The position numbers and the translations under genes are program-made. Shown here one piece after another: positions 3,388-23,648 of a DNA stretch of 64,000 nucleotides. How positions within the stretch are numbered: position 1 is the stretch's first letter; each line of letters begins with the position of its first letter. The notes below the pieces were generated by a model. That model searched no databases. It worked only from the letters and a program-made list of their open reading frames with translations, and was not told where the DNA came from. The stretch comes from an uncultured Gammaproteobacteria bacterium (GTDB lineage: Bacteria > Pseudomonadota > Gammaproteobacteria > Arenicellales > JAANXG01), in assembly GCA_947259175.1 (NCBI GenBank), contig CAMYKW010000004.1, positions 79,403 to 143,402 on the forward strand, given 5' to 3'.

Positions 3388-5586
3388 TCAAGCCGCATTC
3401 GGATGCGCCAGTTGCGGTGACAGCGCATTGTCCTCCTGGAGATGCGACAGGAATACGTGTTTGATGTCGTTAACGGCATCGACATCCACGTTCGCCTCAC
3501 CCACCAGACACTTTTCGTGCAGTTGTGCGCACGCCGCAGCGAAATTTTCGTGTTCGCGAAGTGTCACGTTTGTGTCCGCCTCAGCGCGCTCGCCGAGCAG
3601 CCGCCGGGTGAAATCCACATGGGATTGAACCTGGTCAGCTATAATGCCCAGGATCACCACCAGCCGGGTTTGCAATTGCCCCGCTCCGGCCGCCTGATTG
3701 AGCTGGTTGATGAGTCCCACCAGCGCCTCATGCTGCTGGTCCAGCGCATTCACCCCGACCGCACATCCCTCGTCCCAAACGATTAGCGGCTCGTAATCCT
3801 CGTGACGCCTGAAATGTGCAATCATCTCCTTCAGTTCGGACGTCATTGTCTTCAAATGATCCGCGGATTCCCGCACTTCCCGCGCCGCGCCCACCGGGCC
3901 CTCCGCGGTTTGGGCCAGGCCGTCCAGGATATTTGGTATGTCTGCGCTGCCTTGCGCGGCGCCGGCGACATCCCGGGAAATCGCTTTGGTGACCGCCATC
4001 TGTTCCTCCAAGGCGCTGGCAATGCCGGTTTCAATGTCGTTGATCTTGGTGATTATTTCGTGAATCACACCGATCGCTTCCACGGCTTTGCCGGTATCGC
4101 TCTGAATCCCGGTAATCTTGAGACCGATTTCTTCGGTGGCGCCTGCGGTCTGCCGGGCCAGCTCTTTAACCTCGTTAGCGACCACGGCGAATCCCTTTCC
4201 GGCGTCTCCGGCGCGCGCGGCTTCAATGGTGGCGTTCAGCGCCAGCAAGTTGGTTTGCCCGGCAATGGCGGTGATCATGTTGACCACGTCGCCGATCTCA
4301 TTACTCCGTTCTCCGAGTTGCCCGATGGTCTTGGAGGTGTCCTCGGCCGCCGACAAAGCGGACACGGCGACAGTCAGGGCCTGCGCCGCGTTCCTGGCAA
4401 TCTCCGAGACGCTTGCGGTCATCTGCTCGGTCGCGGCGGCCACCGACTGGATGCGTTCATTCAGGTCCTGGGTGGTGGCTGACGCGGAATTGACGCCTTC
4501 GTGCACGCCGCTGGAGCTCTTTTTGATCTGCTCGCTTGCGCGAATGAGGTTTCCAGATGACTTGAATACTGCATCGGCGTTTTCGTCGATGGCGGCGATG
4601 CGCTTGCGAATGCCGCCGAGGAGAACGTTTACCTCGTCGGCAAGCTGGCTTATGGCGTCGTCGCCGGGGCACGACAACTGTTTGGTCAGATCCCCGTCGG
4701 TGGCCGATCGCACGACCTCGAGAATACCGCCGACGCGGTTTTGCAGTTCGTCGACGCGTTGCAGGTTTTGTTCGCGTTGAGTGCGCAGCTGCCGCTCGGC
4801 GGCGACCGTATCGGTGATCAAGTCGCAATGTAAGACAGCGGCGATTCCCGGCCTCTCGGCATCGCCGACCGGAGCGGCCGCCACACGTACCGATTCGGGA
4901 CCCCAAGTGACCACCATCTCTTGCGATGCGCCCGGGGGTTGTCCGAACACGCCGCGCACGAATTCGAGTTGCGGATTCAGCTGCGTGAGTGGTTGGTCCA
5001 ACACTTGATCCAGCGGGTGCCCGAGGTGCGGCGCGAGGCGCGACAGCAGCTTGCTTGACCAGGGATTGGCGTAGCGGACGATCAAGTCCCGGTCGACGCC
5101 GATCACTGTCGCCGCCAGGTTGTGTGTCGCCAACATGTGCTGCTGCAGGCGCATCCTCTCCGCCGCAAGTTCCGCCCAATCCACTGTTTCGGTCGCCAGC
5201 GCGCCGCGTATTGCGGCGGTGGCCTGGTGCACGGCTCGAGCGACCGGATGGCGCCGGCCTGACGGTGCGGTCGGGGCATGTACGCTGAGGTCCCCACGCG
5301 CCACCGCATCCAGTGACCGCACCGCGCGCCGAGCGTGCGCCATATTCCGCCTAGCAACGAGGACCCCGCCAAGCCCCATCAACGCGACCAACACCGCCAC
5401 ACCGAGAGCGGCGAAGACGATTGTGTGCGGTTCCGTCAGCAGCTGGGGGTCATCGGCGTGCAGCACCACCCGGCGATACAGTCCGTACAACAGTGCGCTC
5501 AACACCAGGCCCCCACTCGCGGTGATGATCGCAAGACTCGTCGCTAGATCGGGGAGATCCCAATTGCTTATTCGTAGTCTTCTCAT
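3388..5586 (-). CDS. Methyl-accepting chemotaxis protein: 2 TM, HAMP, PAS-like, MCP signalling domain, C-terminal hemerythrin-like domain
   Basis: MCP hairpin core [36 protein letters not shown]-terminal 131 aa start [28 protein letters not shown] (hemerythrin signature). The ATG at 5586 overlaps the cheW stop (TAATG) and is preferred over the ORF-track start at 5739. Confidence 0.88.
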
Positions 5587-6080
5587 TAGCGGTGCTCCAT
5601 GTGGGGCAGCGCGACGGGAGCGGTATGAGCAGACTGCCCGCCGCCGGTCGCTTGGTTCAGGTCTATGGCGCGCGCCAGGTCCAGCATCAACAGCAGCCTG
5701 TCCGGCAATTTGAAGGCACCGCGGATCAGATCGCGCCACACACCCCCGAGATGCTCCGGCGCCGGTTCGTAGGCCTCTTCCGGAACTTCAATGACTTCGC
5801 CGATTTCGTCCACTAGGAGACTCACCATGGCGCCGTTCTTGTGCACGACCACGTTCATCGGCGGGCGGTCTTCCGCTGGTGGCTCCAGATCCAGACGCAG
5901 GCGCAGGTCGATCGCGGTCACGATCTCGCCGCGCAGATTGATCAGTCCGCTCACCGCGGGTGGCGCCAGGGGAACGCGGGTGATGTTCTGGGACCTCAGC
6001 ACCTCGCGCACATGTCCGGTGCTCAGGCCGATAAGATAGCCGTCGACGAGAAATGTGCAGACCTGATGCACGGCGGACAC
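5586..6080 (-). CDS. cheW: Chemotaxis coupling protein CheW
   Basis: Single CheW-like domain ([25 protein letters not shown]). GTG start abuts the cheA stop. Confidence 0.9.
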
Positions 6081-8375
6081 TTATCCCTCCCCAACCGCGG
6101 CGGCGCGTTTCGGCCGTTTGCGCATGGTGGAAACCTCGCGTTGTAAAGCGGCAATATCGAACACTTCGGTGATTTTTCCGTTCACGACGATCGTGCCCAA
6201 AGTGCCTTTGCGTGTCGGCGGGCCTTGCGTGGCGGAACATTGCTCGACGATGTCCTGAATGCGGTCCACGACCACGCCGACTGAGCACTCGTCCACAGAG
6301 TAGACCAGGGCGTGTACCGCATCATTTGTGTGGCTGGTTTTGTCGCTGGTGATCAGCCTTGGTTTTCTGCGCCGTTCCCGCAACAGGTCAGTCAGTTCTA
6401 TCAAAGGCAGAATCTCCCGGCCGTACTGCACCACCGTGCGGTTGCCGGTGTGCTCCAGGGATGTGCGTTTAAATTCCTCCAATCTCACTACCGAGTCCAT
6501 CGGAATGGCGATGCGCCCTCCGTCCGAGGTTGTGGCGATGATCAACGCGCAGCGATCCTCATGGTCATCCAGCGAAGATGCAGCATCAACGTCGCTAAAC
6601 CGTTCCTGATGCTCGGAAAGCAATCTGGCGTGTTTCGCCACACCAAGGACGTCGAGGATCAGGGCGACTTTGCCATCACCGGTGATCGTTGCTCCAGCGT
6701 ATACCGGTAGCGCTTTCAGTAAATCGCACAGCGGCTTGACGACGATCTCGGTGGAATCCTCGATGGCGTCGACAACCAATCCGAATTTTTTGGTGTCGGC
6801 CTGCAACACCACGATGTTCAATGCCTGGTCGCCCTGAGGCGCAGCTCCCAAGTTCAGTTCCTGGTGCAAGTAGATGAGTGGCAACAGCTTCCCGCGCAGC
6901 CGGAATACCGGTACCCCGTGGATCGACTCGATGCCGGAGCCCGGGGTATCGGGATTCATGCGGATCAGTTCCAGAATGCCGCCTTGCGGAATCGCGAAGT
7001 TTTCCTTGCCGCTGCGCACCAGCAACGCGGGGACAATGGCCAGCGTCAAGGGCAGCTGTATGCGGAAGGTGGAGCCGCGGTCCCGTTTCGATTCGAGCTC
7101 GATGAAACCGCCAATCTTTTCCAGGTTGGTCCGCACCACGTCCATGCCGACACCGCGACCGGAAATATTGGTCACTTTTTTCGCAGTCGTCATTCCGGGA
7201 GCGAATATCAACCGGCAGATGTCCTGGTCCGGCATTTGCGTGGCCTGAGCGGTGGTGATCATTCCCAATGCGATGGCCTTTTCACGCAAGCGATCGACGT
7301 CGATGCCGGCGCCGTCATCGGCAATTTCGATGATCACCTGGCCGCCGCCGTGATAAGCCGTGAGAGAGACGCATCCCTCGGCGGATTTTCCTTTGGCGAC
7401 GCGATCATCCGGCGACTCGACACCGTGATCCACCGCATTGCGGATCAAGTGGGTAAGAGGATCTTTGATCGCCTCGATGAGACTCTTGTCCAGTTCCGTC
7501 TCCTTGCCCTCCATTTCGATGCGAACTTGTTTACCGCAGTGTTTCGCCAGGTCGCGGACCACCCGGGGGAACTTGTTCCATATGGTGTTGATCGGCTGCA
7601 TGCGGGTCTTCATTACGTCCTGCTGCAGCTCACCGGTGATCGAATTCAATCGTTGGCAGGCGCCGGTCAACAACGGATCCTGTTGTATGGCGGAATGCGC
7701 CAGGATCTGGTTGCGGGCAAGCACCAACTCACCCACCAGGTTCATCAGGTTGTCCAGGATATCCACATCCACCCGGATGGTGCTCTCGGCGGCAGATAAA
7801 CCCGCCGCGGTGGTGGTGGGATCGGGCGCCGGCGCGGATTTTGCCGCGGCCGCGGACGGCTCGGGAGGGATTTCGGCCGCGGCTTGCGGCTCCCCTTCGG
7901 ACCGCGCTGCCGTCGGCCTCACGGGCGAAGTGCGCTCGCCGTGGGCGGCACCGTCGTCGGCTCGCCCGGGACCTTCGGCCAGGCGTGCCAGGGTCGCCAC
8001 CAGATCCGCGTAGTCTTTTTTACCATCGTTGTTGGCGGATTCGATGGCCGTCAGCATCTCGCGAACCGCATCCCCCAGGCTCAGCAGGACCGTGGCGATC
8101 TCCTGACTGAAATCCAGTTCGCGGTCACGCAGCCGGCTGAGCAGATTTTCACCGGCGTGGGATACCGATTCCAAGCGGGAAAAGCCGAAAAACCCACAAG
8201 TGCCCTTGATGCTGTGAATGGTGCGGAAGATGCTGGCAAGCAGCTCGTGGTTAGCCGGATCCGCCTCGAGGGCAATCAGGTCGTTGTCCATCTGATCCAG
8301 GCCCTCGGCGCTCTCAGCGAGAAACTCCTCGATGACTTCTTCCATTCCCTCCAGAGGGTTGTCTTGTTCCGTCAT
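6081..8375 (-). CDS. cheA: Chemotaxis histidine kinase CheA
   Basis: HPt motif HSIKGTCGFFG, kinase boxes HLIRNAVDHG, DDGAGID and GRGVGMD, and a C-terminal CheW-like domain. Confidence 0.95.
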   Translation of the reverse strand: MTEQDNPLEGMEEVIEEFLAESAEGLDQMDNDLIALEADPANHELLASIFRTIHSIKGTCGFFGFSRLESVSHAGENLLSRLRDRELDFSQEIATVLLSLGDAVREMLTAIESANNDGKKDYADLVATLARLAEGPGRADDGAAHGERTSPVRPTAARSEGEPQAAAEIPPEPSAAAAKSAPAPDPTTTAAGLSAAESTIRVDVDILDNLMNLVGELVLARNQILAHSAIQQDPLLTGACQRLNSITGELQQDVMKTRMQPINTIWNKFPRVVRDLAKHCGKQVRIEMEGKETELDKSLIEAIKDPLTHLIRNAVDHGVESPDDRVAKGKSAEGCVSLTAYHGGGQVIIEIADDGAGIDVDRLREKAIALGMITTAQATQMPDQDICRLIFAPGMTTAKKVTNISGRGVGMDVVRTNLEKIGGFIELESKRDRGSTFRIQLPLTLAIVPALLVRSGKENFAIPQGGILELIRMNPDTPGSGIESIHGVPVFRLRGKLLPLIYLHQELNLGAAPQGDQALNIVVLQADTKKFGLVVDAIEDSTEIVVKPLCDLLKALPVYAGATITGDGKVALILDVLGVAKHARLLSEHQERFSDVDAASSLDDHEDRCALIIATTSDGGRIAIPMDSVVRLEEFKRTSLEHTGNRTVVQYGREILPLIELTDLLRERRRKPRLITSDKTSHTNDAVHALVYSVDECSVGVVVDRIQDIVEQCSATQGPPTRKGTLGTIVVNGKITEVFDIAALQREVSTMRKRPKRAAAVGEG

Positions 8376-8611: not shown

Positions 8612-9457
8612 ATGAACAACGACACCGAGCAGCTGGTTCTCAAGCTGCGTGATATTCCTCCACTCTCCGAGATGCAGACGCTGCTGCAGGCGGTGAGCAA
8701 CCAAGACGTCGATTTTCAGGAGCTCGCGAAGATCATCGAATCGAGTCCGCCCACGGCGGCGCGCATCATCAAGGTCGCTAATTCCGCCTTTTACGGGACC
8801 ACCGCGCAGGTCGATTCTGTCAAGGACGCAATAATCCGCGTGCTCGGTTTGGATGTGGTGCGCAGCTTGGTCATGGGGTTGGCGGCAAGTTCGGCCTTCA
8901 ACGCGGAGCGTTGTCCTGCGTTCGACACCCACCGCTACTGGTGCAGCGCCCTGTTGACGGCCAACCTCGCTCGCAGACTCGCGGGTATCGTCACATTAGA
9001 CGATGCCCCGGTACCTGATTTCGCCTATCTGGGTGGCCTGCTGCACAACATCGGGCTGATCGCCCTGGCCCATATCGCACCGACGCAGATGTCGGAGGTG
9101 TTTGCCGCTGCCGAAAGAAACCAACGCCCGCTACACGAAGTGGAATCGCAGGTCCTGGGGCTGGATCACCGCCAGGCCGGTGCATTGATCGTGGCCCAGT
9201 GGGGCATGCCTGAGCAGCTTCACACCGTGATCGTGCATTACCACGAGGATGGCTACCGTGGACCGGAGTGGGTGGCGTGTCGCCTGGTGCGGCTTTGTTC
9301 CGACTGGGCCCAACAGGCCCTCCGGGGTGCGGCGCCAGGCATCGACGGCGATTCGGTCGCCGAGTTGCAAATGGATACGCGCGATCTGAATGCGGTAATC
9401 GGCACCGCCCACCAGGAAGTGCAGTCCATCATCGATCTCGCCCAGCTGTTCCACTGA
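8612..9457 (+). CDS. HDOD domain protein
   Basis: IPPLSEMQTLLQAV..FQELAKIIESSPPTAARIIKVANSAFYG..VKDAIIRVLG..GGLLHNIGLIAL is the typical HDOD layout. Confidence 0.8.
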   Translation: MNNDTEQLVLKLRDIPPLSEMQTLLQAVSNQDVDFQELAKIIESSPPTAARIIKVANSAFYGTTAQVDSVKDAIIRVLGLDVVRSLVMGLAASSAFNAERCPAFDTHRYWCSALLTANLARRLAGIVTLDDAPVPDFAYLGGLLHNIGLIALAHIAPTQMSEVFAAAERNQRPLHEVESQVLGLDHRQAGALIVAQWGMPEQLHTVIVHYHEDGYRGPEWVACRLVRLCSDWAQQALRGAAPGIDGDSVAELQMDTRDLNAVIGTAHQEVQSIIDLAQLFH

Positions 9458-9733: not shown

Positions 9734-9760
9734 TAAAGATTTCGCCCCGGCTGCCGATAA
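9734..9760 (+). promoter_or_regulatory. sigma-28 (FliA)-type promoter
   Basis: TAAAGATT-N11-GCCGATAA is a near-perfect consensus match, 126 nt upstream of the ATG at 9886. Confidence 0.65.
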
Positions 9761-10678: not shown

Positions 10679-11890
10679 TTATCCGGCGCTCAGCAGGTGA
10701 CGCATTTTTTCCACCTGCTGCTTGGTGTTCTCCGCCAGCCGGCGGGCCGAGTCTACACTCAGATCGCCCAAGCCCAATGCCGCCAACGACGGCAGCTCAT
10801 GTAACGGTGGGATGTCCGGGTTGGAGTCATTGCGAATCCTGATCAACAGGTTTGCAAACAGCACCAAACCGCAATAGTCGGGGGCGGTGGTGGGACTGCG
10901 ATAGTAATCCGTTGCGGAGAGGGGCACCAAAGATACCTCGTCGGGAAATCCCCAGCAGCGCAGCATCATGCTGCCGACATGGGCATGCAGTTTGACGATA
11001 ATACGCTCGAGCTCGCCGGGGCGTTGGACGATTTCAGGGTATTTTTCCGCATGCGCAATGACCGCGATGGCGCCGACGTTTTGCAGCAGTCCCGCGAGCA
11101 GCGCGGTTTCGGGTTCGAAATCCTTGATTTTGCCGGCAATGGCAAAGCACGTGGCGGCAATATCGACACTGTGTCGCCACAGCTTCTGCATGTGTCGTTT
11201 GAGCGTGGAGGATTTTGTATTGAACAGCTCACGCATGGCGAAACCGGTGACCAGCTCCCGCGTCGTGGACCAACCCAGCCGCACCAGTGCGTCGGAGGTG
11301 GTGTGCACCGGGTCGTTGCCGCGGTAACGCACGGCGATTTCCGGCAAACTGGGTAATTGCAGCTTGTCGTCCTGACAGCCGACGTACAATTCACGGAAGA
11401 GCAGGTTTTCACGCAATTCAGCACCCGCGTCGACCTCTTCCACCACATAGGCCGACGACGATTGCTCATTCAGGCACCTTTGTAACACGTCACGATCGAC
11501 GCACAGAACTTGCACCGGAGAAGTGGTGGTGACGTTGTAACGGTGAGGCTGCAGCAGGGATACGGCGTATCCAGCTTCGTTGCTGCCGCCTTCCAGGCTG
11601 CGCCGTGCGCCGTTACCGGACTCGATTGTCAGGCGGCCCGTTATAAGATACACCGCGTATTGGCTGCTTGTGCCGATTTGCGCAAGCCGCTCTTCGGCGG
11701 GGAATTCGCGAATCGCGGAATGCCGGGCGATTTCCGTCAACGTCTCCTCTGACAGTGATGCGAACTGCTTGAATCGGCGCAGCGAGTCCATGCCTGGGTG
11801 CGCATCCTCGGCAACGCGTGGGTCTGTCGGGACGTCGTAGGTTTGTTGCGCGGGTGTATGTGCTCTGTGAAACATCTCTGGTCCCCTCAC
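10679..11890 (-). CDS. Cyclic-nucleotide-binding-domain / HDOD-domain protein
   Basis: The N-terminal half is cNMP-binding-like (FPAEERLAQIGTSSQYAVYLITGRLTIE). The C-terminal half is HDOD-like (LPSLPEIAVR, DALVRLG, AGLLQNVGAIAVIAH, KLHAHVG). The start may instead be the ATG at 11875. Confidence 0.65.
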   Translation of the reverse strand: MRGPEMFHRAHTPAQQTYDVPTDPRVAEDAHPGMDSLRRFKQFASLSEETLTEIARHSAIREFPAEERLAQIGTSSQYAVYLITGRLTIESGNGARRSLEGGSNEAGYAVSLLQPHRYNVTTTSPVQVLCVDRDVLQRCLNEQSSSAYVVEEVDAGAELRENLLFRELYVGCQDDKLQLPSLPEIAVRYRGNDPVHTTSDALVRLGWSTTRELVTGFAMRELFNTKSSTLKRHMQKLWRHSVDIAATCFAIAGKIKDFEPETALLAGLLQNVGAIAVIAHAEKYPEIVQRPGELERIIVKLHAHVGSMMLRCWGFPDEVSLVPLSATDYYRSPTTAPDYCGLVLFANLLIRIRNDSNPDIPPLHELPSLAALGLGDLSVDSARRLAENTKQQVEKMRHLLSAG

Positions 11891-12130: not shown

Positions 12131-12157
12131 TAAAGTCTCTCCGATTGCTGCCGATAG
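12131..12157 (+). promoter_or_regulatory. sigma-28 (FliA)-type promoter
   Basis: TAAAGTCT-N11-GCCGATAG, 77 nt upstream of the ATG at 12234. Confidence 0.6.
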
Positions 12158-12175
12158 TCTCAGAAACCAACGCTT

Positions 12176-12196
12176 GGCCAGAGCGGCTCTCTGGCC
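12176..12196 (+). promoter_or_regulatory. Leader hairpin in the 5' UTR of the DOMON-like gene
   Basis: GGCCAGAG-cggct-CTCTGGCC is a perfect 8-bp stem lying between the predicted TSS and the AAGGAGG SD. Confidence 0.3.
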
Positions 12197-12233
12197 CCCG
12201 GCATGAATCAACAGTGAAGGAGGGCGATAAGCC

Positions 12234-13077
12234 ATGGGTAATTCAGGAGCATTTCATTCACTTGTCACGATAATCGGGATGCTGTCGGGAGTGACGCTGT
12301 CGGCCGCGGCCACCGCCACCACCATCACCATGCACAGTCTGGACGCCGCGCCTGTGCTCGATGGACAAGGCCAGGACTGGTCGGGTGTGCCGGTGACCTC
12401 GATCGCGCTCAAACCGAGCCGGTCCGGGATCACTACCGCGGTCGACAGCGTTGACATCAAGGGGGGCGTGCACGGGGACTATATATATTTTCTGGTCGAA
12501 TGGCAGGACAGCACCGAGGATAGTGTGCACAAGCCGTGGGTGTGGGACAAGGACAAAGGTAAGTACGTCAAGGGACCGCAGCGGGAGGATCGTTTTGCGC
12601 TGCAGTTTGCCATGCAAGGCGATTATTCCACCAACTGGTTGTCGGGCAAGGAGTTCATGGCCGACATGTGGCACTGGAAGTCGACGCGTTCCAATCCGCT
12701 GGGCCTGGTGCACGACAAGAGCACGATCATCAGCGCCAAGAAGATGGCCAAGACGCGGGCATTTACCGCGGACGGCGGCGGCAAGGTGTATATCGCGCGT
12801 CCCAGCGATGCCGGGGACAAGCTGTACACGACCAAGCGCTATCACAAATACGACCAGGAGGTGAGAAAACCCACAGGGTTCCACCACCGACGTCGAAGTC
12901 AAGGGCAAGTGGCAGGACGGCAAGTGGTGCCTGGAGATTCGCCGCAAGCGGGATACCGGCCACGCGGACGACGTGGTGTTCCCCACCAGCGGCACGCTGG
13001 TCGGCGGCATCGCGGTGTACGACCATTCCGGTGACGATGATCACACCGTCTCCGACAACCTGGTATTTCAATTCTGA
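12234..13077 (+). pseudogene. Periplasmic DOMON / ethylbenzene-dehydrogenase-like (EB_dh) haem-binding-domain protein, apparent +1 frameshift
   Basis: Signal peptide IIGMLSGVTLSAAATA. Body motifs are DGQGQDW, GDYIYFLVEWQDSTED, DRFALQF and DMWHWKSTRSNPLGLVHD. After YDQEVRK frame 3 turns into Arg-rich nonsense. Frame 1 from 12865 reads ENPQGSTTDVEVKGKWQDGKWCLEIRRKRDTGHADDVVF..GGIAVYDHSGDDDH..LVFQF*. Confidence 0.55.
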
Positions 13078-13092
13078 ACAACGCATCCAGCC

Positions 13093-15585
13093 ATGATCGA
13101 TCGAGCAAAGGCAGAAACCAGAGATGCGGCGATTGTCGCAGCCGAGACAGACGCCGCCACCGGCGGCGCCGACGCGGCGGGTCATGGCGTGACTCGAGAG
13201 ATCGCCGTCACCTGGTCCATCGGCGCCGTGCTTGCGGTAATGCTGTTGATCACCGTCATCGGTGGACTGTATGTCGCCACCAAGCTAAACGTCGCCTCTG
13301 AACGGGCAGGGGAGAATCACGAACTGATCGAGCAGAGCGACGCCAACATACGCAAACTGGATCAGGCGTTGTTGCCGGTGGTGCGGCGTCTGTATCACCT
13401 CGAGCAGGTGGTGCAGCGCCATGGCTTTGAATTCGAAATGCTGGTGCTCGACACCGACCGCGAGACCGGCGCCCTGGCCGCGGCCGCGAGCGGGGTCCAG
13501 GAGGCATTCGCGGCGCTGGGGGACACCGGCGGCGGCATCCTATCCCAGGAGTTGCTGGCGCAGATCGAGGAGCTGGTCGCGGTGATGTCGGCGATGACCG
13601 ATGAGTTGCTGGAGACCGAGGATCGCAACGAGCGCTTCGATCTGCTTTTAGATGCGCAGGACATGCAGCTGCAGTCGCGGACGACGATCAAAACTGCCTC
13701 GGCGCAGTTGGAAGAGGAGAGCAAACGTCTAACCGCCCTGGCGGCGGAGAACACCTCCAAAGCGCACCACCATCTGGAGGAACAGTACGGCACACTGCGG
13801 TCGGTCCAATATGGCGCCGGGTGGAGTTTGGGGGTGAATCTCATTGTGGTCATCGCGGCCATGTTGCTCCTGTACCGGCTGCTCGACCGGCGCCTGGGCC
13901 GGGTGGCCGATTACGCCAACCGGATTGCCGGCGGCGACTTCGACGCCCGCCTCGAGACAACCGCCACGGACAAGATCGCCCAGGTCGCGGCCGCCGTGGG
14001 TACGATGGGTAAGAGCCTCGCTGCATTGGTGCGCGACGGCGAACAGAAAAACGCCCTCGCCGAGGAAGCCAAGGCAAAGGCGGAGCGCGAGAACTGGATG
14101 AACGAGAGCCTGCGCCGGGTGTCCGAGGCGACACAGGGGGAAACCCGGATCGAGCGGCTGCTGGACCAGGCGCTGTCTATCCTGTGTGAGCGGCTGGCAC
14201 TGTCTGGCGCGTGGGTGAGTGAATTCAACCGCGGCGAGGCGCTATTGCTGGCGGCGTGCGGAGATATCGACGAAGCCACGCGAAGCGCCTTGGTTGTTGA
14301 AGGCGGCGCGATGAATAACGTCGCGCGCGACGGCGAGTCTCGATGGCTGGAGTTACCCCATGGGGATACCGCTCACACCTTATACGTCGCTGCGTTGAAC
14401 GAGTCTCGTAACGAACCCATGGTGCTGGCGCTGGTGTTCGCGGACTCGCCGGATGAGATCCAAAAACGCCTGGTAAAACACACCATGGTGAATCTCGGCG
14501 TCAGCGTACGCGCCGCCAACCAGGCGCAGACTTTGGAGCGCAACAACGCCGAGCTACGCCATAAGGTCGACGAAATGCTCGCAGTGGTCAATGCCGCGGC
14601 CAAGGGGGATCTCACCCGGGAGGTGAAAGTCTCGGGTGCGGATGCGATCGGCCAGATGAGCCAGGGATTGAATGGATTCTTCAAGGAACTACGCAGCCAC
14701 ATTGGCACCATCGCGGTGAACGCCCAAAGCTTGACGGCGGCGTCGGAGCAACTGTCCGGGGTGGGCACGCAGATCGGCACCAACGCGGAGCAGACTTCCG
14801 ATCGGGCCACGGCGGTGCTGGCGGTCGCCGAAGACGTGACCAAAGGCGTGGAAACCGTGGCGGCCGCCGCGGAACAGATGAACGCCAGCATCCGCGAGGT
14901 TGCCGACAACGCGAGTTCTGCGTCCGCGGTGGCGACCAACGGCGTCGAGATCGCCACCACCACCAACGCCACGGTGGCCAAACTGGGTGAAAGCAGCAAT
15001 GAGATCGGTAACGTCGTCAAGGTGATCACCACGATCGCCGAGCAGACCAATCTGCTGGCGTTGAACGCCACCATCGAAGCGGCGCGCGCCGGTGAGGCGG
15101 GTAAGGGGTTTGCGGTGGTGGCCAACGAAGTCAAGGATCTGGCCAAGGAAACCAGCCAGGCCACCGAGGATATCAGCAACAAGATCGAGGCCATCCAGGT
15201 GGACACCCGCAGCGCGGTGCAGGCGATCGGGGAGATCGGCGACATTATCGGCAAGATCCATGAGATCCAACAGCGTATCTCCTCCGGCGTTGAAAATCAG
15301 GCCCGCACCACGGATGAGATCACCCGGGTTGTGGCCGGTGCGGCGCAGGGGAGCACGGAGATTTCCCAGAGTGTCGCCAGCGTTAACCAGGCGGCGCAGG
15401 ATACCTTGAGCGGCGCCACCCAGGCGCAGCACGCGGCGCAGGAATTGTCGCGCACCGCCGCCGAGCTGCAGCGCATGGTGGGGCGGTTCACCTACGAACA
15501 GCCGCGGGAGGCCACGCCGTCCGGATTCGGTGATCGGGTGCGGGCCTTGTCTGAAGCCCCTGTGCCACAGCAAAAGGTCGGCTGA
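13093..15585 (+). CDS. Methyl-accepting chemotaxis protein (periplasmic helical sensor, HAMP, GAF-like insert, second HAMP, MCP signalling domain)
   Basis: Two TM segments flank about 190 aa. HAMP motif RIAGGDFDARLE. MCP core [35 protein letters not shown]. The gene starts 16 nt after the DOMON-like stop. Confidence 0.9.
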   Translation: MIDRAKAETRDAAIVAAETDAATGGADAAGHGVTREIAVTWSIGAVLAVMLLITVIGGLYVATKLNVASERAGENHELIEQSDANIRKLDQALLPVVRRLYHLEQVVQRHGFEFEMLVLDTDRETGALAAAASGVQEAFAALGDTGGGILSQELLAQIEELVAVMSAMTDELLETEDRNERFDLLLDAQDMQLQSRTTIKTASAQLEEESKRLTALAAENTSKAHHHLEEQYGTLRSVQYGAGWSLGVNLIVVIAAMLLLYRLLDRRLGRVADYANRIAGGDFDARLETTATDKIAQVAAAVGTMGKSLAALVRDGEQKNALAEEAKAKAERENWMNESLRRVSEATQGETRIERLLDQALSILCERLALSGAWVSEFNRGEALLLAACGDIDEATRSALVVEGGAMNNVARDGESRWLELPHGDTAHTLYVAALNESRNEPMVLALVFADSPDEIQKRLVKHTMVNLGVSVRAANQAQTLERNNAELRHKVDEMLAVVNAAAKGDLTREVKVSGADAIGQMSQGLNGFFKELRSHIGTIAVNAQSLTAASEQLSGVGTQIGTNAEQTSDRATAVLAVAEDVTKGVETVAAAAEQMNASIREVADNASSASAVATNGVEIATTTNATVAKLGESSNEIGNVVKVITTIAEQTNLLALNATIEAARAGEAGKGFAVVANEVKDLAKETSQATEDISNKIEAIQVDTRSAVQAIGEIGDIIGKIHEIQQRISSGVENQARTTDEITRVVAGAAQGSTEISQSVASVNQAAQDTLSGATQAQHAAQELSRTAAELQRMVGRFTYEQPREATPSGFGDRVRALSEAPVPQQKVG

Positions 15586-15783: not shown

Positions 15784-18700
15784 TCAGGATGACGCTACGG
15801 CGTCTGCGCGCACCGCGGGCGGTTCCTCGCGCAACGCAAACCGCTCGATCACCGCGTCCGATAAAAGCGCCGCGTACCAGCAGCCGAGCCGGTCTTCCAG
15901 CATGTGGTGTGTGTGCACCCAGGCGCGCAGCCGTTCGCCATCCTTGGCCAGTGCGTCGCGGTCATGGATGCGGTCGCGGATGGCGGCGAGCCACGCTTCC
16001 GTGTCGTTGGCCACGCGGGTGATCGGCTGCGCCGCGTAAGGTGGGATATCCGTGGCGATCACCGGCCAGCCCATGGCCCCGTATTCGAGCACACGCAGGT
16101 CGCTCTTGCACTCGTTGAAGGCGTTGATCTCCAGGGGTGCAACGGCAAGGTCCAAGTCCAGTTGTGCGAGTTGTGCCGGATAGTGGCGGTAAACCACCGG
16201 CTGATAATACTCAGCAACATATGGCCGCAGCGCACGCGGGCACATACCCATCATCACCCAGTCCACTTCTCCGGCCAACGCCTCCATCACCGGCGCCAGG
16301 ATGGTGAGATCGCCATCGTGTTGTTGCGCGCCCACCCAGCCGACGCGGGGTCTGGCGGCTCGTCGGCGGCGTATTTCCAGGTGTCCCCAACGCTGGCGCT
16401 CGAGGAGGTTGGGGACCACGCGCACGTCATCGATGAACCCGCGGTACGCTGCGGCCAGTGGCTCCGTGGGAACCACCAGCCGGTGGCAGTGGGCCAGGGC
16501 GTCGCGAAGCCGCTGTTCCAGGTCCGCCGGCATCAGGCCCCGCCGGTCGTTGTCATCGGGCATGGCGAGCAGGTGGTCGTCGAGTCCGAACACCAGCAAC
16601 GCCTCGCCCGACTTCCGGTAGCGGGGCAGCCAGTGCAGGAAGGGATCGGTGAAGCCGTGATGGATTAGCACGGTGTCGGGCGCGGCCCGTTTCAATTCGC
16701 ACAATGTCGGCACCCGCGTGGGTACGGCGCCCTCGTGGTCGGGCAAGAACGCGATTTCGGCGTGTGCTGCACGATCCAGGGCCTGTAACGGTTGGCGCAC
16801 GCGGTATTCGCCGCTGCCCTGCCGGTTCAGGGGAAACGCCCACACCCGGGGCCGGGGGTGCTCCGGCGGCGTCCACGGCACCGCGAGTTCGTCTTCCACA
16901 CGCATGTCGCCGCGGGCGAGGGAAAGGTTCCGATTGTAGGCCGGGTCGTTCGCCAACAGGTCAGGCCAGCGTGCTATCAGCGTCGTGTTATCCGCCGTGG
17001 TCTTGGAGTTCGGATCGGGAGGGGCAGGCGATTGCGGCTCGTGGCTTTCGTGCTTCAGCAAGGTCGCGAACGGTGTCCACACCACCTCGTATCCCGCCTG
17101 GCGGGCGCGCAGACACAAATCCACATCGTGGCCGCACTGCGTGAATCCGGTTTCGTCGAAACCGCCCAGCTGCGCGAAAAGTTCCCGGGAAAGCAGCATA
17201 CAGGCGCCACTGACCGCCGAGAAGTTTTGTGCGACCTGTAGACGGTTGAGGTAACCGGGTGACTGCATCGCGTGTCCGGTAAACGCTCGCCCGGCGCCGT
17301 CGTCTATGCCCAATATCAAACCCGCATGCTGTACCCGTCCGTGCAGGTCAATGAGGCGTGCGCCCACCACCCCGACTTCCGGGCGCTGTACGTTGGCCAC
17401 CATTCGCGTCAGCCATTCGTCATGGATAGCCTGTGCATCAGGTTCGAGCACCAGCAACAGTTCGCCCCGCGATTCGGCGGCGGCGACATGGGTCAACGAT
17501 GCCGATCCCACGGCGCCGGGTGTGCGCAGCACGCGCACTTTGTCGTCATACGTGCGCGCCAGCTCGTCCAGCAGATCCGAATCGCCGCCGCCGCAATCGC
17601 TCAGGACGACCTCAAAGTCGGGGTAGCGGGTTTTCTGCAGCAAGCCTTCGATGCATAGGGGCAGCCATTTATAACGTCTCTCCACTGGAATCAGAATAGA
17701 CACCGAAGGCGGGTCGTGCGCCTGGTAATCGACAAAAAACGTTCCCGCGATCTCATGATGGGTCACTTGGGCGGTGAGACCGTTGCGTTCGAGGTGCGTC
17801 TCGACCGCGATACGGTCGTTTTCGGCGTCCGCGGCACCGATGGGCTCGCGGTCTTTGTCGCGCGGATAGTGGACGAGCACTTCCGGTATGTGGCCGACAG
17901 CGGATTCTCCGGCCGTATCCAGGATGCGCAACACCGCGTCGAAAACACCGGCGCCCGCGCCAAATCCTCCGCAACGGGTGAGCACATCACGCTCCAGCGC
18001 CAGCACGTCACCCATGTATGGCGTCGAACGCAGCAGGTCCAGGTTGAAGTCGGGTTTGAATCGCGGTTGATCGCGAGTCCCGTCTCGCGCAATATGGTCG
18101 TCGTCACAGTAGATTATCCGCCATTGCGGATATCGGTTCATATAGTCGCCCCAGCGCAGCAGGGCGTGGGGCGCGAACTGCACGCCCGATTTGGCGCGGA
18201 TGATCCAGTCGGCCTGGGATTCGCTGACGATCCGATTCAAGGTGTCGACTAGATCCCCGCGGATCTCCACCCACTCCAGATTGGGCAGTCGATGAAAACC
18301 CGCGTCCGGCGCCGGACAGTCCGCTATCACCGACAGGCCCCACCCCGGATACAGCTGTCGACACAGACTGTCGAGGGTGTCGGCCAGCGCGTCGTGCTGA
18401 TTCCCCTGGTGGATGGCAATCAACTGAAAGCTGGGCCGTAGCCGCCATGCGAGCATCATGCGCTCCGCCATGTATTGCGCCTTGTTTTCGGTAAGCGCGT
18501 GCGGCTGTTGCCACCGCGCGTAGCGGTCTGCATCGCTGTGCGCTGATCCTTCGTCGCGCCGCGCGCCTTCGAGTTGTGTCAGCGCCTGCGTCCGTCTCAG
18601 TTCCACCTGCGCATTGCCCGGCAGCGGGTAGCGTGCGTAGATTTTACGGTGCAAGGCTGGAAAGTCGTGCCGCTCGCGCTGACTCATGTTGTCGTCCCTG

Positions 18701-21105
18701 GCCTCGGGCCGCAGGCGGACCTCGGCGGTGATACGCGGCACGTGCACCGGGGCGGTAATCCGCGCAAGGCGCAGTAATAGGTCCCAGTCCTCGAGGGCGT
18801 TGAGCGTCACATCGAAGTCTCCGGTGCAGGCGATCAATTCGCGCCGGTGGGCCCAGGTGTTAACCGGAATGAAATTGCCGACATGCAGTTGTTCCAGGGA
18901 GTATTGGATGTGCGAATACGGCGTGGTGCGCGACAAAACTTGACGTTTACCGCCTGCGAGGCGTTCGCGCACGTACTCCGCTTCGGTATAGACCAGGCCG
19001 GCTTGGTTGCCGCGCATGCCGTCGACGATCGTTTCGAAGTGGTCCGGGCACAACCGGTCATCGTCATCCAGATAACAGAGAATCGCCCCCGCAGACAGGG
19101 AGATGCCGGTATTGCGCGCGGCGGAAAGGCCGCGATTTTGAGCGTGTCGAACGTAGCGAATCCGGCCGTGGGGATCCTTGGCGGTAATCCAGTCGCCGAT
19201 GTCTTCGCCGCCGTCGTTGACGACGATGGCCTCCCAGTTATTGTAACTCTGGGCAAGCACAGAGGCCACCGCATCGCGCAGTAAATCGGGACGGTCGAGG
19301 GTGGGAATGATCACCGACACCAACGGCGTAGCATCGATCGGCGGCAACTCTGGTGCGGATCGGGCATTGTCCGTCTCGGCTAAATCCAAGAACCGGAGCA
19401 GCAAGGTGTTGTGAGGATGAGTGTCACGGGTGCGCGTTAGTTTGGCGTGCTGCGCCGGCGATACGTGTTTGAGGCGTTCCTCCGCGTCGCTGATCTCATG
19501 CGGGTCAAACACACCGGATTGGTGTGGCGCCAATTGCGCGCGCACGTAGTCAAGATTTTCGAGTGTGTCTGCGACCATGCTGTTATCGCGGTTGCGGTAC
19601 AGGAACAGCGGTTGCGATACATGGTGTGATTTGAAACCGCATGCAGCGGCCGCCAGCCAGAATTCCCAGTCCTCGCCTCCCAGGTACATGGCCGGTGAGT
19701 AACCCCCGGTTCGCTCCCACACCTCGCGGCGGTACAGGCTGCAATAGTCGTGGATGTTGTGCCGCTTCAGGGCTTCCAGGGATACGCGGCCCTTGACGTG
19801 GACATGATCCGCAAGGCCGAAATTCTGCTCGTCCACGTAGACGATGGCGATATCCGCATACCGATCGAGCACGGTGACGGTCTGTGTAAGATAGTCCGGG
19901 TGCAGTTTGTCATCGGCATCCAACGGCAGGATGTAGCGGCCCTGGGATGCGTTGATACCGGAATTGCGGGCGCTGGCAAGCCCGGCATTGGCTTGGGAGA
20001 TCAAACGAATTCTACCGTCGCCGCGGGTCGCCGCGAACCGACGCACGACCTGCACACAGTCGTCGGGGCTCCCGTCGTCTACCACTACGCACTCCCAATC
20101 CGTGAAGCGCTGGGCAACGACACTTTCCAGCGCTTCGGTGACGTATTGCGCCTGAAGGTAACAGGGGATGACGATGCTGACCGCCGGCTGGTGATGCACT
20201 GCAACGGCATTATGCGCACGCAAGCCCCGCGACAAGATGCCGCGAACGCGGCGAATGTCCCGGTCCAGCGTCCATGCCGCCGCTCCGCAGGACTCGATAC
20301 GCCGGTCCAGATGCGCCAGGATCTCCAACTCCAATCCGCGCAGTCTCTCCGCCGCCGCGGAGTACGCGGCGCGGGCTACCAGGCGCAGATGTGTCTCGAG
20401 CAGCCCGGAGTCCGCCAGGCACTGCTGCGGGTCACTTCCCGCGTCGAGACGTCGCCGGACGCCCGGCGTGCGTGAGTAGAAGAAGTTCGGATTTTCGATG
20501 GCCAGGCGCGTAACCAGTTCCCATGCTTCGGCGCCGCGGGCCGACGGTTGGAATTCTCCCAACCGTAGCAGATCGCTGCCGCGGTACACGGTGGCGGCGG
20601 GATCGATATGGTTCCCGTGGGTGAGCAGTAAGCCGAGATCGTTGCGGCCTCCGGCGTAGTCTTGCGCCGCCAGTCCCGGGTGAGGGGGAGGCTGCTTGGT
20701 GTCTTCCTGGGTGCCGGCATATTCCGGCGCGGCATAACCCAGGGAGCATTCGGGATGCGCCTCCAGGCCGGCGATGATTCGCGCCAGATGACCGGGCAGC
20801 AGGTGTTCATCCCCCCGCAGCCAAGTGTGATAACGCCCACACCCCGGTTCCAGGGCGTGTGTCTGGAAATGTTGTGGCGTGGGATTTTTCGGCACACGGA
20901 CGCAGTTGATGCGTCCATCGGCGAGGTATGGTGCGACGGCCTCACGCAGACCATCGCTGCGGCCGTCATCCAGGATTATGATCTCCAACGGCGACACGTC
21001 CTGCAGCTGCACGCTTTCAACGCAGCGACCGAAGCTCGACGCATCCTCGTGCGGCCGGATAAAAACCGTGACGAGCACCTCGTTGTTCAATTCCCGAGTA
21101 TTCAC
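15784..21105 (-). CDS. Giant multidomain glycosyltransferase (several GT-A/GT2-like modules plus C-terminal GT-B-like module)
   Basis: 1773 aa. GT2-like starts are VTVFIRP..IIILDDG, VSIVIPCY..VVVDDGSPDD..DADD, VSVIIPTLDR..AQSYNNWEAIVVNDGG..DDDD and VSILIPV..VVLSDCGGGD. The C-terminal 370 aa carry VGWVGAQQHDGD..LDLAVAPLE..NECKSDLRVLEYGAMGWPVIATD. GTG start. Confidence 0.8.
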   Translation of the reverse strand: MNTRELNNEVLVTVFIRPHEDASSFGRCVESVQLQDVSPLEIIILDDGRSDGLREAVAPYLADGRINCVRVPKNPTPQHFQTHALEPGCGRYHTWLRGDEHLLPGHLARIIAGLEAHPECSLGYAAPEYAGTQEDTKQPPPHPGLAAQDYAGGRNDLGLLLTHGNHIDPAATVYRGSDLLRLGEFQPSARGAEAWELVTRLAIENPNFFYSRTPGVRRRLDAGSDPQQCLADSGLLETHLRLVARAAYSAAAERLRGLELEILAHLDRRIESCGAAAWTLDRDIRRVRGILSRGLRAHNAVAVHHQPAVSIVIPCYLQAQYVTEALESVVAQRFTDWECVVVDDGSPDDCVQVVRRFAATRGDGRIRLISQANAGLASARNSGINASQGRYILPLDADDKLHPDYLTQTVTVLDRYADIAIVYVDEQNFGLADHVHVKGRVSLEALKRHNIHDYCSLYRREVWERTGGYSPAMYLGGEDWEFWLAAAACGFKSHHVSQPLFLYRNRDNSMVADTLENLDYVRAQLAPHQSGVFDPHEISDAEERLKHVSPAQHAKLTRTRDTHPHNTLLLRFLDLAETDNARSAPELPPIDATPLVSVIIPTLDRPDLLRDAVASVLAQSYNNWEAIVVNDGGEDIGDWITAKDPHGRIRYVRHAQNRGLSAARNTGISLSAGAILCYLDDDDRLCPDHFETIVDGMRGNQAGLVYTEAEYVRERLAGGKRQVLSRTTPYSHIQYSLEQLHVGNFIPVNTWAHRRELIACTGDFDVTLNALEDWDLLLRLARITAPVHVPRITAEVRLRPEARDDNMSQRERHDFPALHRKIYARYPLPGNAQVELRRTQALTQLEGARRDEGSAHSDADRYARWQQPHALTENKAQYMAERMMLAWRLRPSFQLIAIHQGNQHDALADTLDSLCRQLYPGWGLSVIADCPAPDAGFHRLPNLEWVEIRGDLVDTLNRIVSESQADWIIRAKSGVQFAPHALLRWGDYMNRYPQWRIIYCDDDHIARDGTRDQPRFKPDFNLDLLRSTPYMGDVLALERDVLTRCGGFGAGAGVFDAVLRILDTAGESAVGHIPEVLVHYPRDKDREPIGAADAENDRIAVETHLERNGLTAQVTHHEIAGTFFVDYQAHDPPSVSILIPVERRYKWLPLCIEGLLQKTRYPDFEVVLSDCGGGDSDLLDELARTYDDKVRVLRTPGAVGSASLTHVAAAESRGELLLVLEPDAQAIHDEWLTRMVANVQRPEVGVVGARLIDLHGRVQHAGLILGIDDGAGRAFTGHAMQSPGYLNRLQVAQNFSAVSGACMLLSRELFAQLGGFDETGFTQCGHDVDLCLRARQAGYEVVWTPFATLLKHESHEPQSPAPPDPNSKTTADNTTLIARWPDLLANDPAYNRNLSLARGDMRVEDELAVPWTPPEHPRPRVWAFPLNRQGSGEYRVRQPLQALDRAAHAEIAFLPDHEGAVPTRVPTLCELKRAAPDTVLIHHGFTDPFLHWLPRYRKSGEALLVFGLDDHLLAMPDDNDRRGLMPADLEQRLRDALAHCHRLVVPTEPLAAAYRGFIDDVRVVPNLLERQRWGHLEIRRRRAARPRVGWVGAQQHDGDLTILAPVMEALAGEVDWVMMGMCPRALRPYVAEYYQPVVYRHYPAQLAQLDLDLAVAPLEINAFNECKSDLRVLEYGAMGWPVIATDIPPYAAQPITRVANDTEAWLAAIRDRIHDRDALAKDGERLRAWVHTHHMLEDRLGCWYAALLSDAVIERFALREEPPAVRADAVASS

Positions 21106-22191: not shown

Positions 22192-22485
22192 TTACTCACG
22201 GGCGTCAAATGGGTGTTCGATCGATTGCAGTCGATAAATGAATGCCAACACCTCCGCGACCGCCTGGTAGAGCTGCACCGGGATATCGGCATCGAGATCG
22301 ACCTGCGCGAGCAGACCGACCAATTCGGGATCTTCGTACAGCGGCACGCCTGCTTGTCTTGCAATGCCGATAATCTGTTCGGCGATCAGCCCGCGTCCTT
22401 TCGCCACTACCCGCGGCGCGTGATCGTCGCGTTCATACTTGAGCGCAACGGCATTGCGGTAATCACCGTGTCGTTTAGACTTCAC
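22192..22485 (-). CDS. Free-standing FlhB C-terminal-domain-like protein (EscU/YscU/FlhB family fragment)
   Basis: 97 aa reading AVALKYERDDHAPRVVAKGRGLIAEQIIGIARQAGVPLYEDPELVGLL..VAEVLAFIY. GTG start overlaps the upstream stop (GTGA). Confidence 0.75.
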   Translation of the reverse strand: MKSKRHGDYRNAVALKYERDDHAPRVVAKGRGLIAEQIIGIARQAGVPLYEDPELVGLLAQVDLDADIPVQLYQAVAEVLAFIYRLQSIEHPFDARE

Positions 22486-23648
22486 GCCTGGACGTCCAGC
22501 AGTGGTTGTTGAATACCCGGAAAATCCGCCTCATGGATGCCCGACGCACAGACCACGGATTCCGGAACCAGGCCGATGTTGCGCAGTCGGTCGCATAGAC
22601 CGTCGAGGTGGGATTGGGCGAGTGCTACCGTCGCATCGCGTTCCGCGCGTAACACAACGGAAATCAAGTCGCCGGAGAGGGTTAAGCGCGCCTGCATTGC
22701 GCCGATGGACGGCAGCTCGATTGAGACGACGGTGGAAAATACGCCCCCCCCTTGTCCACCCCGCGACGACGGTCGTTTCTCGATTCTGAATCTCACCATT
22801 TGCACCTCGTCTCCGTCTCGTACCGGCAGCTCCAGATTCCACGCGGATCTCGAACCCTCGACTTCGATCAGCGATGTGAGTTGGTGCAGCTGAATTCGCG
22901 CGAGCGCGCTTTCCACCTGTTGGGACAAAGCGTTTAATGTCTTGACGACCGCGGCGTCGCCAGGCGACGCTGTATTTGTATTGCCATGCGCCTGCTGATT
23001 TGTCGTGGCGGGTGCACTGCGGCTGCGAACCGGGCGCGAACCGCCCGGATTCACCATATCAGCCAGTGCGGTACGCAGCCGCACCAGTCCCGCCTTGAAA
23101 TCCCGTTCCAACGCGCCACGATGGGAGTCCGACAGCAGCCTGAGCAGGCGCTGTTCCAGAAAATGACCGCTGTTCAATATCGCCTGTTTTACAGATTCCC
23201 CGGACAAGGATCCGCTGATCTGGGTCAGACTATCGACGACGTGGCGAGCCAATTGCGTGATCGAGCCGGGTAGTCGCGTACCACCGGACTGGCGCGCGAT
23301 ACGATGTAAATTTGTCAACAACTCGATAATCGATCCCTGTTTCGGCAGTTGTTGCCGAATCGCCTGCACCAGGTTGGACGGATGCAGTTGCTGGTCGAGA
23401 ATCCTGAGCCGAATCTCCGGTCCGATCTTCTCCACCACCAGCGCCAGGGATTGACCGGCGATCAGTGGCAGCGTAGTGCGAGCAGTGAACGTAGCCTGGT
23501 TCAGTTGCAGCGTCACCGTTCCCTGCTGGGCGACGGTGAGGACGGTGCCGGAAAGCTGCTGGCCGACCGCGAGCCCACTGAGCTGCGCGTGATTCGACGC
23601 CACCGTGAGCAACTGCTGGGTGACCAGTGAGGTTGATATGGATTCCAT
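22482..23648 (-). CDS. FliK-like protein (flagellar hook-length control C-terminal-like domain)
   Basis: 388 aa. The C-terminal block WNLELPVRDGDEVQMVRFRIE..VVSIELPSIGAMQARLTLSGDLISVVLRAERDATVALAQSHLDGLCDRLRNIGL follows the Flg_hook-type pattern. It is translationally coupled to the FlhB-like gene. Confidence 0.6.
   Translation of the reverse strand: MESISTSLVTQQLLTVASNHAQLSGLAVGQQLSGTVLTVAQQGTVTLQLNQATFTARTTLPLIAGQSLALVVEKIGPEIRLRILDQQLHPSNLVQAIRQQLPKQGSIIELLTNLHRIARQSGGTRLPGSITQLARHVVDSLTQISGSLSGESVKQAILNSGHFLEQRLLRLLSDSHRGALERDFKAGLVRLRTALADMVNPGGSRPVRSRSAPATTNQQAHGNTNTASPGDAAVVKTLNALSQQVESALARIQLHQLTSLIEVEGSRSAWNLELPVRDGDEVQMVRFRIEKRPSSRGGQGGGVFSTVVSIELPSIGAMQARLTLSGDLISVVLRAERDATVALAQSHLDGLCDRLRNIGLVPESVVCASGIHEADFPGIQQPLLDVQA

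Follow-up and report, generated by a model that had tools for sequence, protein, structure and literature searches.

The 64,000-nucleotide (nt) stretch of DNA analysed here (the window; contig CAMYKW010000004.1 of an uncultured Gammaproteobacteria bacterium, positions 79,403 to 143,402) carries a gene for a secreted protein of the Pfam EB_dh family, directly followed by the gene of an 830-amino acid (aa) methyl-accepting chemotaxis protein (MCP). Comparison with related loci suggests that the EB_dh gene and the gene of the adjacent transducer very probably constitute a two-part periplasmic sensor module. The interpretation that we favour, with reasonable though not high confidence, is an accessory-protein-dependent two-part sensor with a remodelled ligand pocket, which would be wired to chemotaxis here and would be inactivated, or misassembled, in this particular genome. 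Such a module is apparently undescribed before and the change at its ligand site is suggestive, the copy in the window being defective. An earlier reading of the same letters (the first-pass annotation) had proposed that a haem-binding-type EB_dh/DOMON protein and the MCP form a two-part receptor; the pairing and the conservation of the partner domain across output types speak for this proposal, whereas the frameshift in the co-sensor gene of this genome speaks against it.

Conservation of the gene pair

Loci were sampled with two EB_dh peptide patterns, taking one genome per species and ignoring the neighbouring genes, which gave 59 loci; the 47 whose EB_dh protein shares 40% or more identity with the query are treated as close relatives. 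In these 47, the EB_dh gene is followed on the same strand by the gene of a large membrane signalling protein, which usually starts 5-90 nt downstream. The outputs of these partners, assigned with Pfam on 20 representatives and then classified across all loci, correspond to GGDEF-EAL in 22 cases (plus one truncated), to MCP in seven besides the window, to a histidine kinase, often hybrid, in nine, and to a GAF domain only in one, five of the 47 contigs ending before the partner output could be read. The partner gene is absent at L027, the sole such case among the close loci, and at L012 it lies 4.5 kb away, downstream of the EB_dh gene. In this last locus (L012:7434-9224 (-) and L012:11384-12517 (+)), the displaced partner is found along with a gene for a cytoplasmic REC-GGDEF-EAL protein convergent to the EB_dh gene.

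Across these output types, the N-terminal periplasmic parts of the partners fall into one BLAST cluster of 45 members and have in common the motifs EFExxVLDxDR and ELLET...N.R.QL..D. Moreover, a profile to which only the 22 GGDEF-EAL partners contributed their periplasmic segments recovers the window MCP (E = 2.3e-20) and every other partner, with no other match among 1663 open reading frames (ORFs), the window's other MCP being among those not matched. That one module drives three different outputs is what marks a portable sensor. When all ORFs of the neighbourhoods are clustered, the EB_dh protein and its partner are the only conserved families, with no third gene. For most loci, the nearest neighbour on EB_dh identity is also the nearest on partner-domain identity, a pattern to be expected of two genes that travel together; identities range from 45 to 90% for the EB_dh protein and from 20 to 88% for the partner domain. 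When the scan is reversed and starts from the partner domain, the EB_dh gene is directly upstream in 3/3 metagenome loci; this reciprocal co-occurrence and the size of the partner-domain family are based on a small metagenome scan with these three loci, one of which is probably the same contig as L044.

The pair occurs in marine Gammaproteobacteria, Desulfobacterota, Magnetococcales and SAR324, cultured carriers being Amphritea sp. HPY, Marinobacterium jannaschii and Motiliproteus. For the EB_dh/MCP co-occurrence check suggested in the first-pass annotation, the result is then a signalling partner conserved beside EB_dh in dozens of genomes from several phyla, and the comparison supports the gene pair as a functional unit. 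No description of a stand-alone EB_dh/DOMON protein paired with a chemoreceptor, a GGDEF protein or a kinase was found in the literature, in which subscription journals were poorly covered; within that coverage, the earlier remark that no case of this arrangement had been characterised agrees with our search.

The periplasmic domain of the window MCP (aa 64-242; 13282-13818, + strand), which carries the EFExxVLDxDR ... ELLET motif, has no Pfam family match, even at lenient thresholds. Its single-sequence AlphaFold2 (AF2) model (predicted local distance difference test, pLDDT, of 70) shows four helices, and the best fold matches of this model, which are weak (all E > 0.02), are the four-helix bundles of Tsr, NarQ and Adeh_2942. 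The periplasmic domain of the partners is then probably a four-helix bundle.

Fold, ligand pocket and nature of the signal

With its reading frame repaired (see below), the window protein scores 82.9 bits against Pfam EB_dh (PF09459; cut-off 33.3) over residues 48-267, so that the family proposed for it earlier is confirmed above threshold by the hidden Markov model, and PF09459 is present in all homologues retrieved. The five peptide motifs on which that proposal had been based, DRFALQF among them, are all present in the translated frames. TIGR03477, the model of haem-b gamma subunits, gives 23.5 bits, below its cut-off of 169.85. The AF2 model of an intact orthologue, P0001 (76% identical; pLDDT 94.9), has its best Protein Data Bank matches by Foldseek in NxrC (7b04_C, E = 1.8e-10) and EbdC (2ivf_C, E = 1.6e-9, TM-score 0.71), and CBM9 modules and the DOMON domain of dopamine beta-hydroxylase appear with much lower scores. 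The window protein belongs to the Pfam EB_dh/DOMON superfamily, with a predicted beta-sandwich fold. A separate observation concerns P0111 (329 aa, from a 1555-nt contig), in which the N-terminal half of an EB_dh protein is joined to a response-regulator receiver domain; on so short a contig, the call is probably chimeric or frameshifted and does not reflect a true fusion.

The haem b of NxrC is ligated by Met155 and Lys305, and that of EbdC by a Met and a Lys (PMC8387239). A haloarchaeal Nar gamma subunit (L063), encoded on a plasmid beside NarG, NarH and a TorD-type chaperone, presents Met and Lys at the same offsets. In EbdC, the ligands are presumably Met108 and Lys201, numbers that the alignment offsets fit. 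An exhaustive profile search yielded 1958 representatives at E <= 0.001, 194 of them at E <= 1e-30; the 147 wider relatives considered here (P0113-P0259) come from it, and most of them carry C/N-M-L-S-G ahead of the WHWK strand and, close to the C-terminus, H-S-x-S or K-S-x-S. In the profile of these relatives the Met aligns to NxrC Met155 and the Lys/His to EbdC Lys201, the same residues as in the haloarchaeal subunit, 61 relatives having Met/His as ligand pair and 16 having Met/Lys. In the Met-type relatives, the residue at position 99 varies together with the second ligand, His99 occurring with His277 and Tyr99 with Lys277, which suggests a contact inside the haem pocket.

The proteins linked to a transducer align to these relatives without gaps (hhalign probability 100%) and, as judged from this alignment, form a clade that is defined by the change of the axial Met to an invariant Trp, Trp135. 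The Met by which TIGR03477 haem-b gamma subunits are recognised (EbdC Met108, NxrC Met155) is replaced by this Trp, and the axial Lys position (EbdC Lys201, NxrC Lys305) is occupied by an invariant His, which could serve as haem ligand. The window protein has the Trp/His pair, as do 110/112 close homologues and every one of the 47 partner-linked loci, and the rest of the pocket (His99, His277 and Ser280) is retained. Together with the partner motif EFExxVLDxDR, the clade residues H99, W135, H147, M211, H277 and S280 provide a signature that defines a compact two-gene module. An ungapped mapping that had placed the Met at Leu136 and the Lys at Ser280 was superseded by the profile alignments with the Met-type relatives. 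The description of the protein as haem-binding in type holds for its family and for its fold, which is near those of NxrC and EbdC, but not for the axial residues, where Trp stands for Met and His for Lys.

Two groups of relatives stand apart. In the distant branch L048-L058 (e.g. L050:5932-6960 and L056:4750-5856) a CX3CH haem-c motif (GC[AMT]V[LA]CH) is present in a loop inserted before the ADMWHWK strand, a loop that is absent from the sensor clade; within this branch, only in L056 does a HAMP histidine kinase follow, with an N-terminus that clusters with the partner family. The Met/His-type protein P0112 (L064:1225-2091) is encoded between genes resembling those of Fe superoxide dismutase and of a TonB-dependent receptor, with no signalling neighbour.

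Based on these comparisons, the secreted protein, a Sec-exported beta-sandwich of EB_dh/DOMON type, would act as co-receptor for the membrane transducer. It would descend from haem-b proteins ligated by Met/His or Met/Lys, the Met having changed to Trp and the His having been kept, and the signal would be bound in the remodelled pocket. The best guess for this pocket would be a His-ligated haem b with the sixth site either open or capped by the Trp, a His-ligated haem with an open sixth position being the usual design of gas-binding haem sensors. An open site of this kind could bind a small ligand (O2, NO or sulfide) or report the redox state, and in doing so would alter the docking of the protein on the helical periplasmic domain of the adjacent transducer. 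The HAMP domain would relay this change to an exchangeable output, which would be mostly c-di-GMP turnover or a histidine kinase in other lineages and, in this one, the control of CheA via the MCP, expressed with the late flagellar genes. In this lineage, the MCP output and the sigma-28 promoter described below would thus imply that the module feeds chemotaxis. In the window genome, the MCP would have been left without its partner through a 20-nt deletion, unless the assembly is in error.

It is from these alignments and models that we infer the docking, the nature of the ligand and the retention of haem. That haem is retained with an open site is a tentative proposal, to which we give somewhat less than an even chance. 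Possible, but doubtful as a whole, is the fuller picture of a periplasmic counterpart of H-NOX, in which the change of Met to Trp would leave a His-ligated haem b with a site that is free or gated by Trp for O2, NO, CO or sulfide, and in which the protein would dock on a four-helix-bundle domain coupled to three outputs. A non-haem ligand in the remodelled pocket appears rather unlikely, yet it has to be considered seriously.

The best specified form of this last idea is that haem has been lost and that the pocket, with its Trp as a stacking platform, binds a glycan or another organic ligand in the manner of CBM9 and PghK and presents it to the transducer. The fold does match the CBM9 structures 7nwo and 1i82, many Trp, Asp and Arg residues are invariant, and PghK is a precedent for a DOMON/CBM9-like fold as periplasmic sensor (bioRxiv 10.1101/2023.05.05.539549). 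However, the TM-scores of these two structures against the P0001 model are low (0.33-0.37), no Pfam match to CBM9_1 is found in the window protein at E < 0.01, and both the His at the axial position and the covarying His99 are kept. The lectin-like 3-keto-disaccharide-hydrolase domains fused to some relatives were discounted as evidence of sugar binding; since the fused proteins retain the Met/His pair, they do not favour sugar binding by the EB_dh domain. We consider a glycan-type ligand unlikely, roughly one of the lesser alternatives that still deserve attention.

A second alternative is that the secreted protein binds no ligand and acts as a periplasmic inhibitor or stabiliser, like YfiR for YfiN or CpxP for CpxA, until envelope or redox stress causes its release or degradation. 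This reading can draw on the same synteny evidence, and the far stronger conservation of the EB_dh protein than of the partner domain, seen in the identity ranges given above, is compatible with a rigid docking module. Nonetheless, the strict conservation of the pocket residues equivalent to haem ligands would be unexpected for a pure protein-protein regulator, and we regard this explanation as improbable.

In a third alternative, the protein would be a canonical six-coordinate haem-b cytochrome of the EB_dh/DOMON type that reports the redox state to the MCP. The Pfam match, the proximity of the fold to the haem-b subunits NxrC and EbdC, and the Met/His or Met/Lys pairs retained by the nearest relatives are all consistent with it. 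However, the axial Met is an invariant Trp in every partner-linked member, the CX3CH motif of the c-type relatives is missing, and no genes for the alpha or beta subunits of a molybdenum (Mo) enzyme (Mo-bisPGD alpha, FeS beta) are found in the window or in the 47 loci, so a cytochrome of this kind seems very unlikely. An incidental adjacency, in which the EB_dh gene would be a decaying remnant and the MCP would sense its own ligand directly, draws on the frameshifting deletion in the former and on the full length of the latter, which aligns end to end with its orthologues, but the single lesion with the other invariant residues intact and the pairing conserved in about 45 other loci leave it with hardly any probability.

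Several points weigh against the accessory-protein-dependent sensor that we favour. All of its support is comparative, and many of the sampled loci come from metagenome-assembled genomes. The conserved adjacency could also reflect a chaperone-like or inhibitory partner; the loss of the axial Met could equally signify the loss of haem; and the fold is common to the sugar-binding CBM9 modules. The four-helix-bundle call for the partner depends on the single-sequence model and on the weak fold matches mentioned above, and gene context is known for only one Met-type relative, P0112. Finally, the co-receptor gene is disrupted in the window, and with this frameshifting deletion the pair cannot work in this genome as proposed, unless the assembly is in error.

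The operon of the window and its chemotaxis surroundings

The EB_dh gene of the window is split over two frames. Translation, Pfam and the orthologues place the signal peptide and native residues 1-210 at 12234-12864 (+), in frame 0; the ORF is native as far as codon 210, beyond which it is read in the wrong frame until a stop at 13034. The annotated 266-aa protein of this genome (P0003 in the public record) corresponds to this frameshifted product. The C-terminal part, otherwise intact in translation (ENPQGS...GKWQDGKW...DDHTVSDNLVFQF, then the stop), continues in frame +1 at 12865-13077 (+) and ends with the TGA at 13075-13077. Protein and DNA alignments locate at the junction (12864-12865, +) a deletion of 20 nt in the context GAGGTGA[TGCCCAAGTACATCCTTGCC]GAAAAC; the missing nucleotides (TGCCCAAGTACATCCTTGCC in L001) are present after the position equivalent to 12864 in L001, L002 and L019, and their absence removes MPKYILA and shifts the frame by +1. 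An alignment with 18 homologues shows that these seven residues are conserved, and every other invariant residue of the family is retained in the window protein, among them the DDH His (H270 in the repaired numbering). The N-terminal part shares 69-76% identity with the intact orthologues P0001, P0004 and P0005, and the EB_dh gene is intact in all three orthologous loci, L001, L002 and L019. The earlier description of a gene for a secreted protein is thus accurate as to signal peptide and family, but it hinted at the broken frame only by speaking of a repaired protein. Programmed frameshifting was rejected because the window gene lacks the seven conserved residues and its orthologues are each read in a single frame. 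Since there is a single lesion and all remaining invariant residues are intact, any decay would be very recent, or else the lesion is an assembly artefact; either is compatible with the alignments.

The MCP gene (13093-15585, +) starts 15 nt past the TGA of the EB_dh gene, and no promoter-like or terminator-like site was found on the + strand between the two. According to Pfam and the orthologues, its 830-aa product consists of a first transmembrane (TM) helix, the helical periplasmic domain, a second TM helix, a HAMP domain, a region of about 170 aa, another HAMP domain and the MCP signalling domain (aa 605-769; 14905-15399, +; PF00015, E = 2.3e-33). The TM helices, placed from the sequence and the helical model, are at about aa 38-63 and 243-262. 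Pfam scores of 115.9 bits for MCPsignal (PF00015) and 46.8 bits for HAMP (PF00672) support the first-pass description of an 830-aa MCP directly after the gene of the secreted protein, with a periplasmic stretch at about aa 64-242. Full-length orthologues of the same architecture in L001, L002 and L019 align with it end to end. The region of about 170 aa between the HAMP stretches (aa 321-490; 14053-14562, +) is conserved in these three loci and gives no Pfam match even at lenient thresholds, and an assignment to GAF was dropped; in L017 and L020, a GAF domain is located at the equivalent place.

Upstream of the pair, a motif scan and the conservation in orthologous loci identify a sigma-28 (FliA)-type promoter, TAAAGTCT-N11-GCCGATAG (12131-12157, +). 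It is the sole match to the pattern within the window, with 0 in 100 shuffles, and fits the FliA class consensus TAAA(GTTT)-N11-GCCGATAA at a suitable distance. The CTAAAGT and GCCGATA boxes are unchanged across L001, L002 and L019, where they lie 104-120 nt upstream of the EB_dh start codon and where the surrounding sequence has diverged (64% identical). No such site was found in the other 43 loci scanned; its conservation is confined to the MCP-type clade. Because the boxes are invariant in diverged orthologues and the surroundings contain chemotaxis and flagellar genes, the sigma-28 assignment of the operon promoter, already made in the first-pass annotation, is well supported by the sequence comparison, and from it we infer that the operon depends on FliA. 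The only other sigma-28-like site of the window, TAAAGATT...GCCGATA (9734-9759, +), is situated upstream of the region with the CheY-like gene, at a distance of some 500 nt from the likely start.

The leader between the promoter and the start measures 77 nt. A hairpin pointed out earlier does exist in it as an 8-bp stem, GGCCAGAG-CGGCT-CTCTGGCC, read from the sequence at 12176-12196 (+), but the leader folds no better than shuffled sequences (z = -0.62, with 53/200 shuffles folding as well) and no conservation of the hairpin is visible in the aligned orthologues; it probably lacks meaning and is not counted as a feature. A Shine-Dalgarno sequence, AAGGAGG (12217-12223, +; read from the sequence), precedes by 10 nt the ATG at 12234, and its GAGG part is kept in the orthologues.

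In both gene order and sequence, L001, L002 and L019 are orthologues of the window locus, the shared order being CheA, HDOD, CheY-like, a cyclic nucleotide monophosphate (cNMP)-HDOD protein in L002 and L019, EB_dh, MCP and a giant glycosyltransferase. The surroundings in the window encode CheB, an MCP with a hemerythrin domain, CheA, HDOD proteins, a CheY-like protein and FliK. The hemerythrin MCP (3388-5739, -; 783 aa, with the hemerythrin domain, PF01814, at its C-terminus) lies beside CheB (2250-3377) and CheA (6081-8375) and is a putative second receptor of the O2/redox type near the EB_dh-MCP pair. Three HDOD proteins are encoded within 17 kb (8612-9457, +; 10679-11890, -; 24304-25170, +), one of them fused to a cyclic-nucleotide-binding domain and divergent from the EB_dh-MCP operon. 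Convergent with the MCP gene, and near a FliK-like gene (22482-23648), lies a gene at 15784-21105 (-) whose 1773-aa product contains four GT2 glycosyltransferase stretches; the gene keeps its place in L001 and L019, and may have a role in the glycosylation of flagellin or of the surface.

Comparison with known systems

The closest structures, EbdC (2IVF chain C) and NxrC (7B04 chain C), share with the window protein the EB_dh family and the beta-sandwich fold, as well as the W-H/Y-W-K strand and the [K/H]-x-x-S segment. However, these subunits have an axial Met and Lys and a Mo enzyme as partner, whereas the clade of the window has Trp and His and a signalling protein as partner.

Transducers that depend on an accessory protein include LuxP-LuxQ, TorT-TorS and MBP-Tar. 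The same organisation is described for NspS-MbaA, with polyamines as signal and a GGDEF-EAL transducer (PMC8079147), for PruR-DcpA, with a pterin and a transducer combining diguanylate cyclase and phosphodiesterase (PMC11194511), and for YfiR-YfiN (PMC3375315). In systems of this kind, as in the window pair, the gene of a soluble periplasmic protein stands beside that of a transducer on which this protein is presumed to dock, and the outputs of accessory-protein systems include GGDEF-EAL proteins, kinases and chemoreceptors, as in the EB_dh module. The accessory proteins differ in fold, being of the periplasmic-binding-protein, SUOX-like or YfiR type in the known systems and of the EB_dh/DOMON type here. 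Moreover, the EB_dh module is distinct in that one module is coupled to three output classes.

The known haem sensors (H-NOX, globin-coupled and PAS-haem) are mostly cytoplasmic, so that extracytoplasmic sensing of gases or redox state in bacteria is poorly understood. The genes of the haem sensors H-NOX and NosP either stand next to genes of kinases or of diguanylate cyclases or are fused to those of MCPs (PMC9814294, PMC12329717). The window protein resembles H-NOX as a stand-alone sensor paired in operons with histidine kinase, GGDEF-EAL or MCP outputs and, if haem is retained, would also resemble it in a His-ligated haem with an open site. Nonetheless, H-NOX has an unrelated fold and is cytoplasmic, whereas the EB_dh protein has a signal peptide and its haem is only putative.

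The nearest precedent for a fold of the DOMON superfamily as periplasmic sensor in bacterial signalling is PghK of Shewanella oneidensis, a histidine kinase with a CBM9/DOMON-like periplasmic sensor domain (bioRxiv 10.1101/2023.05.05.539549). In PghK, this domain is part of the kinase itself and has glycan fragments of peptidoglycan as its proposed ligands, whereas in the window the sensor is a separate protein of the EB_dh branch and the partner contributes a helical domain. The EB_dh-transducer pair belongs to none of the accessory-protein or H-NOX families with which it was compared.

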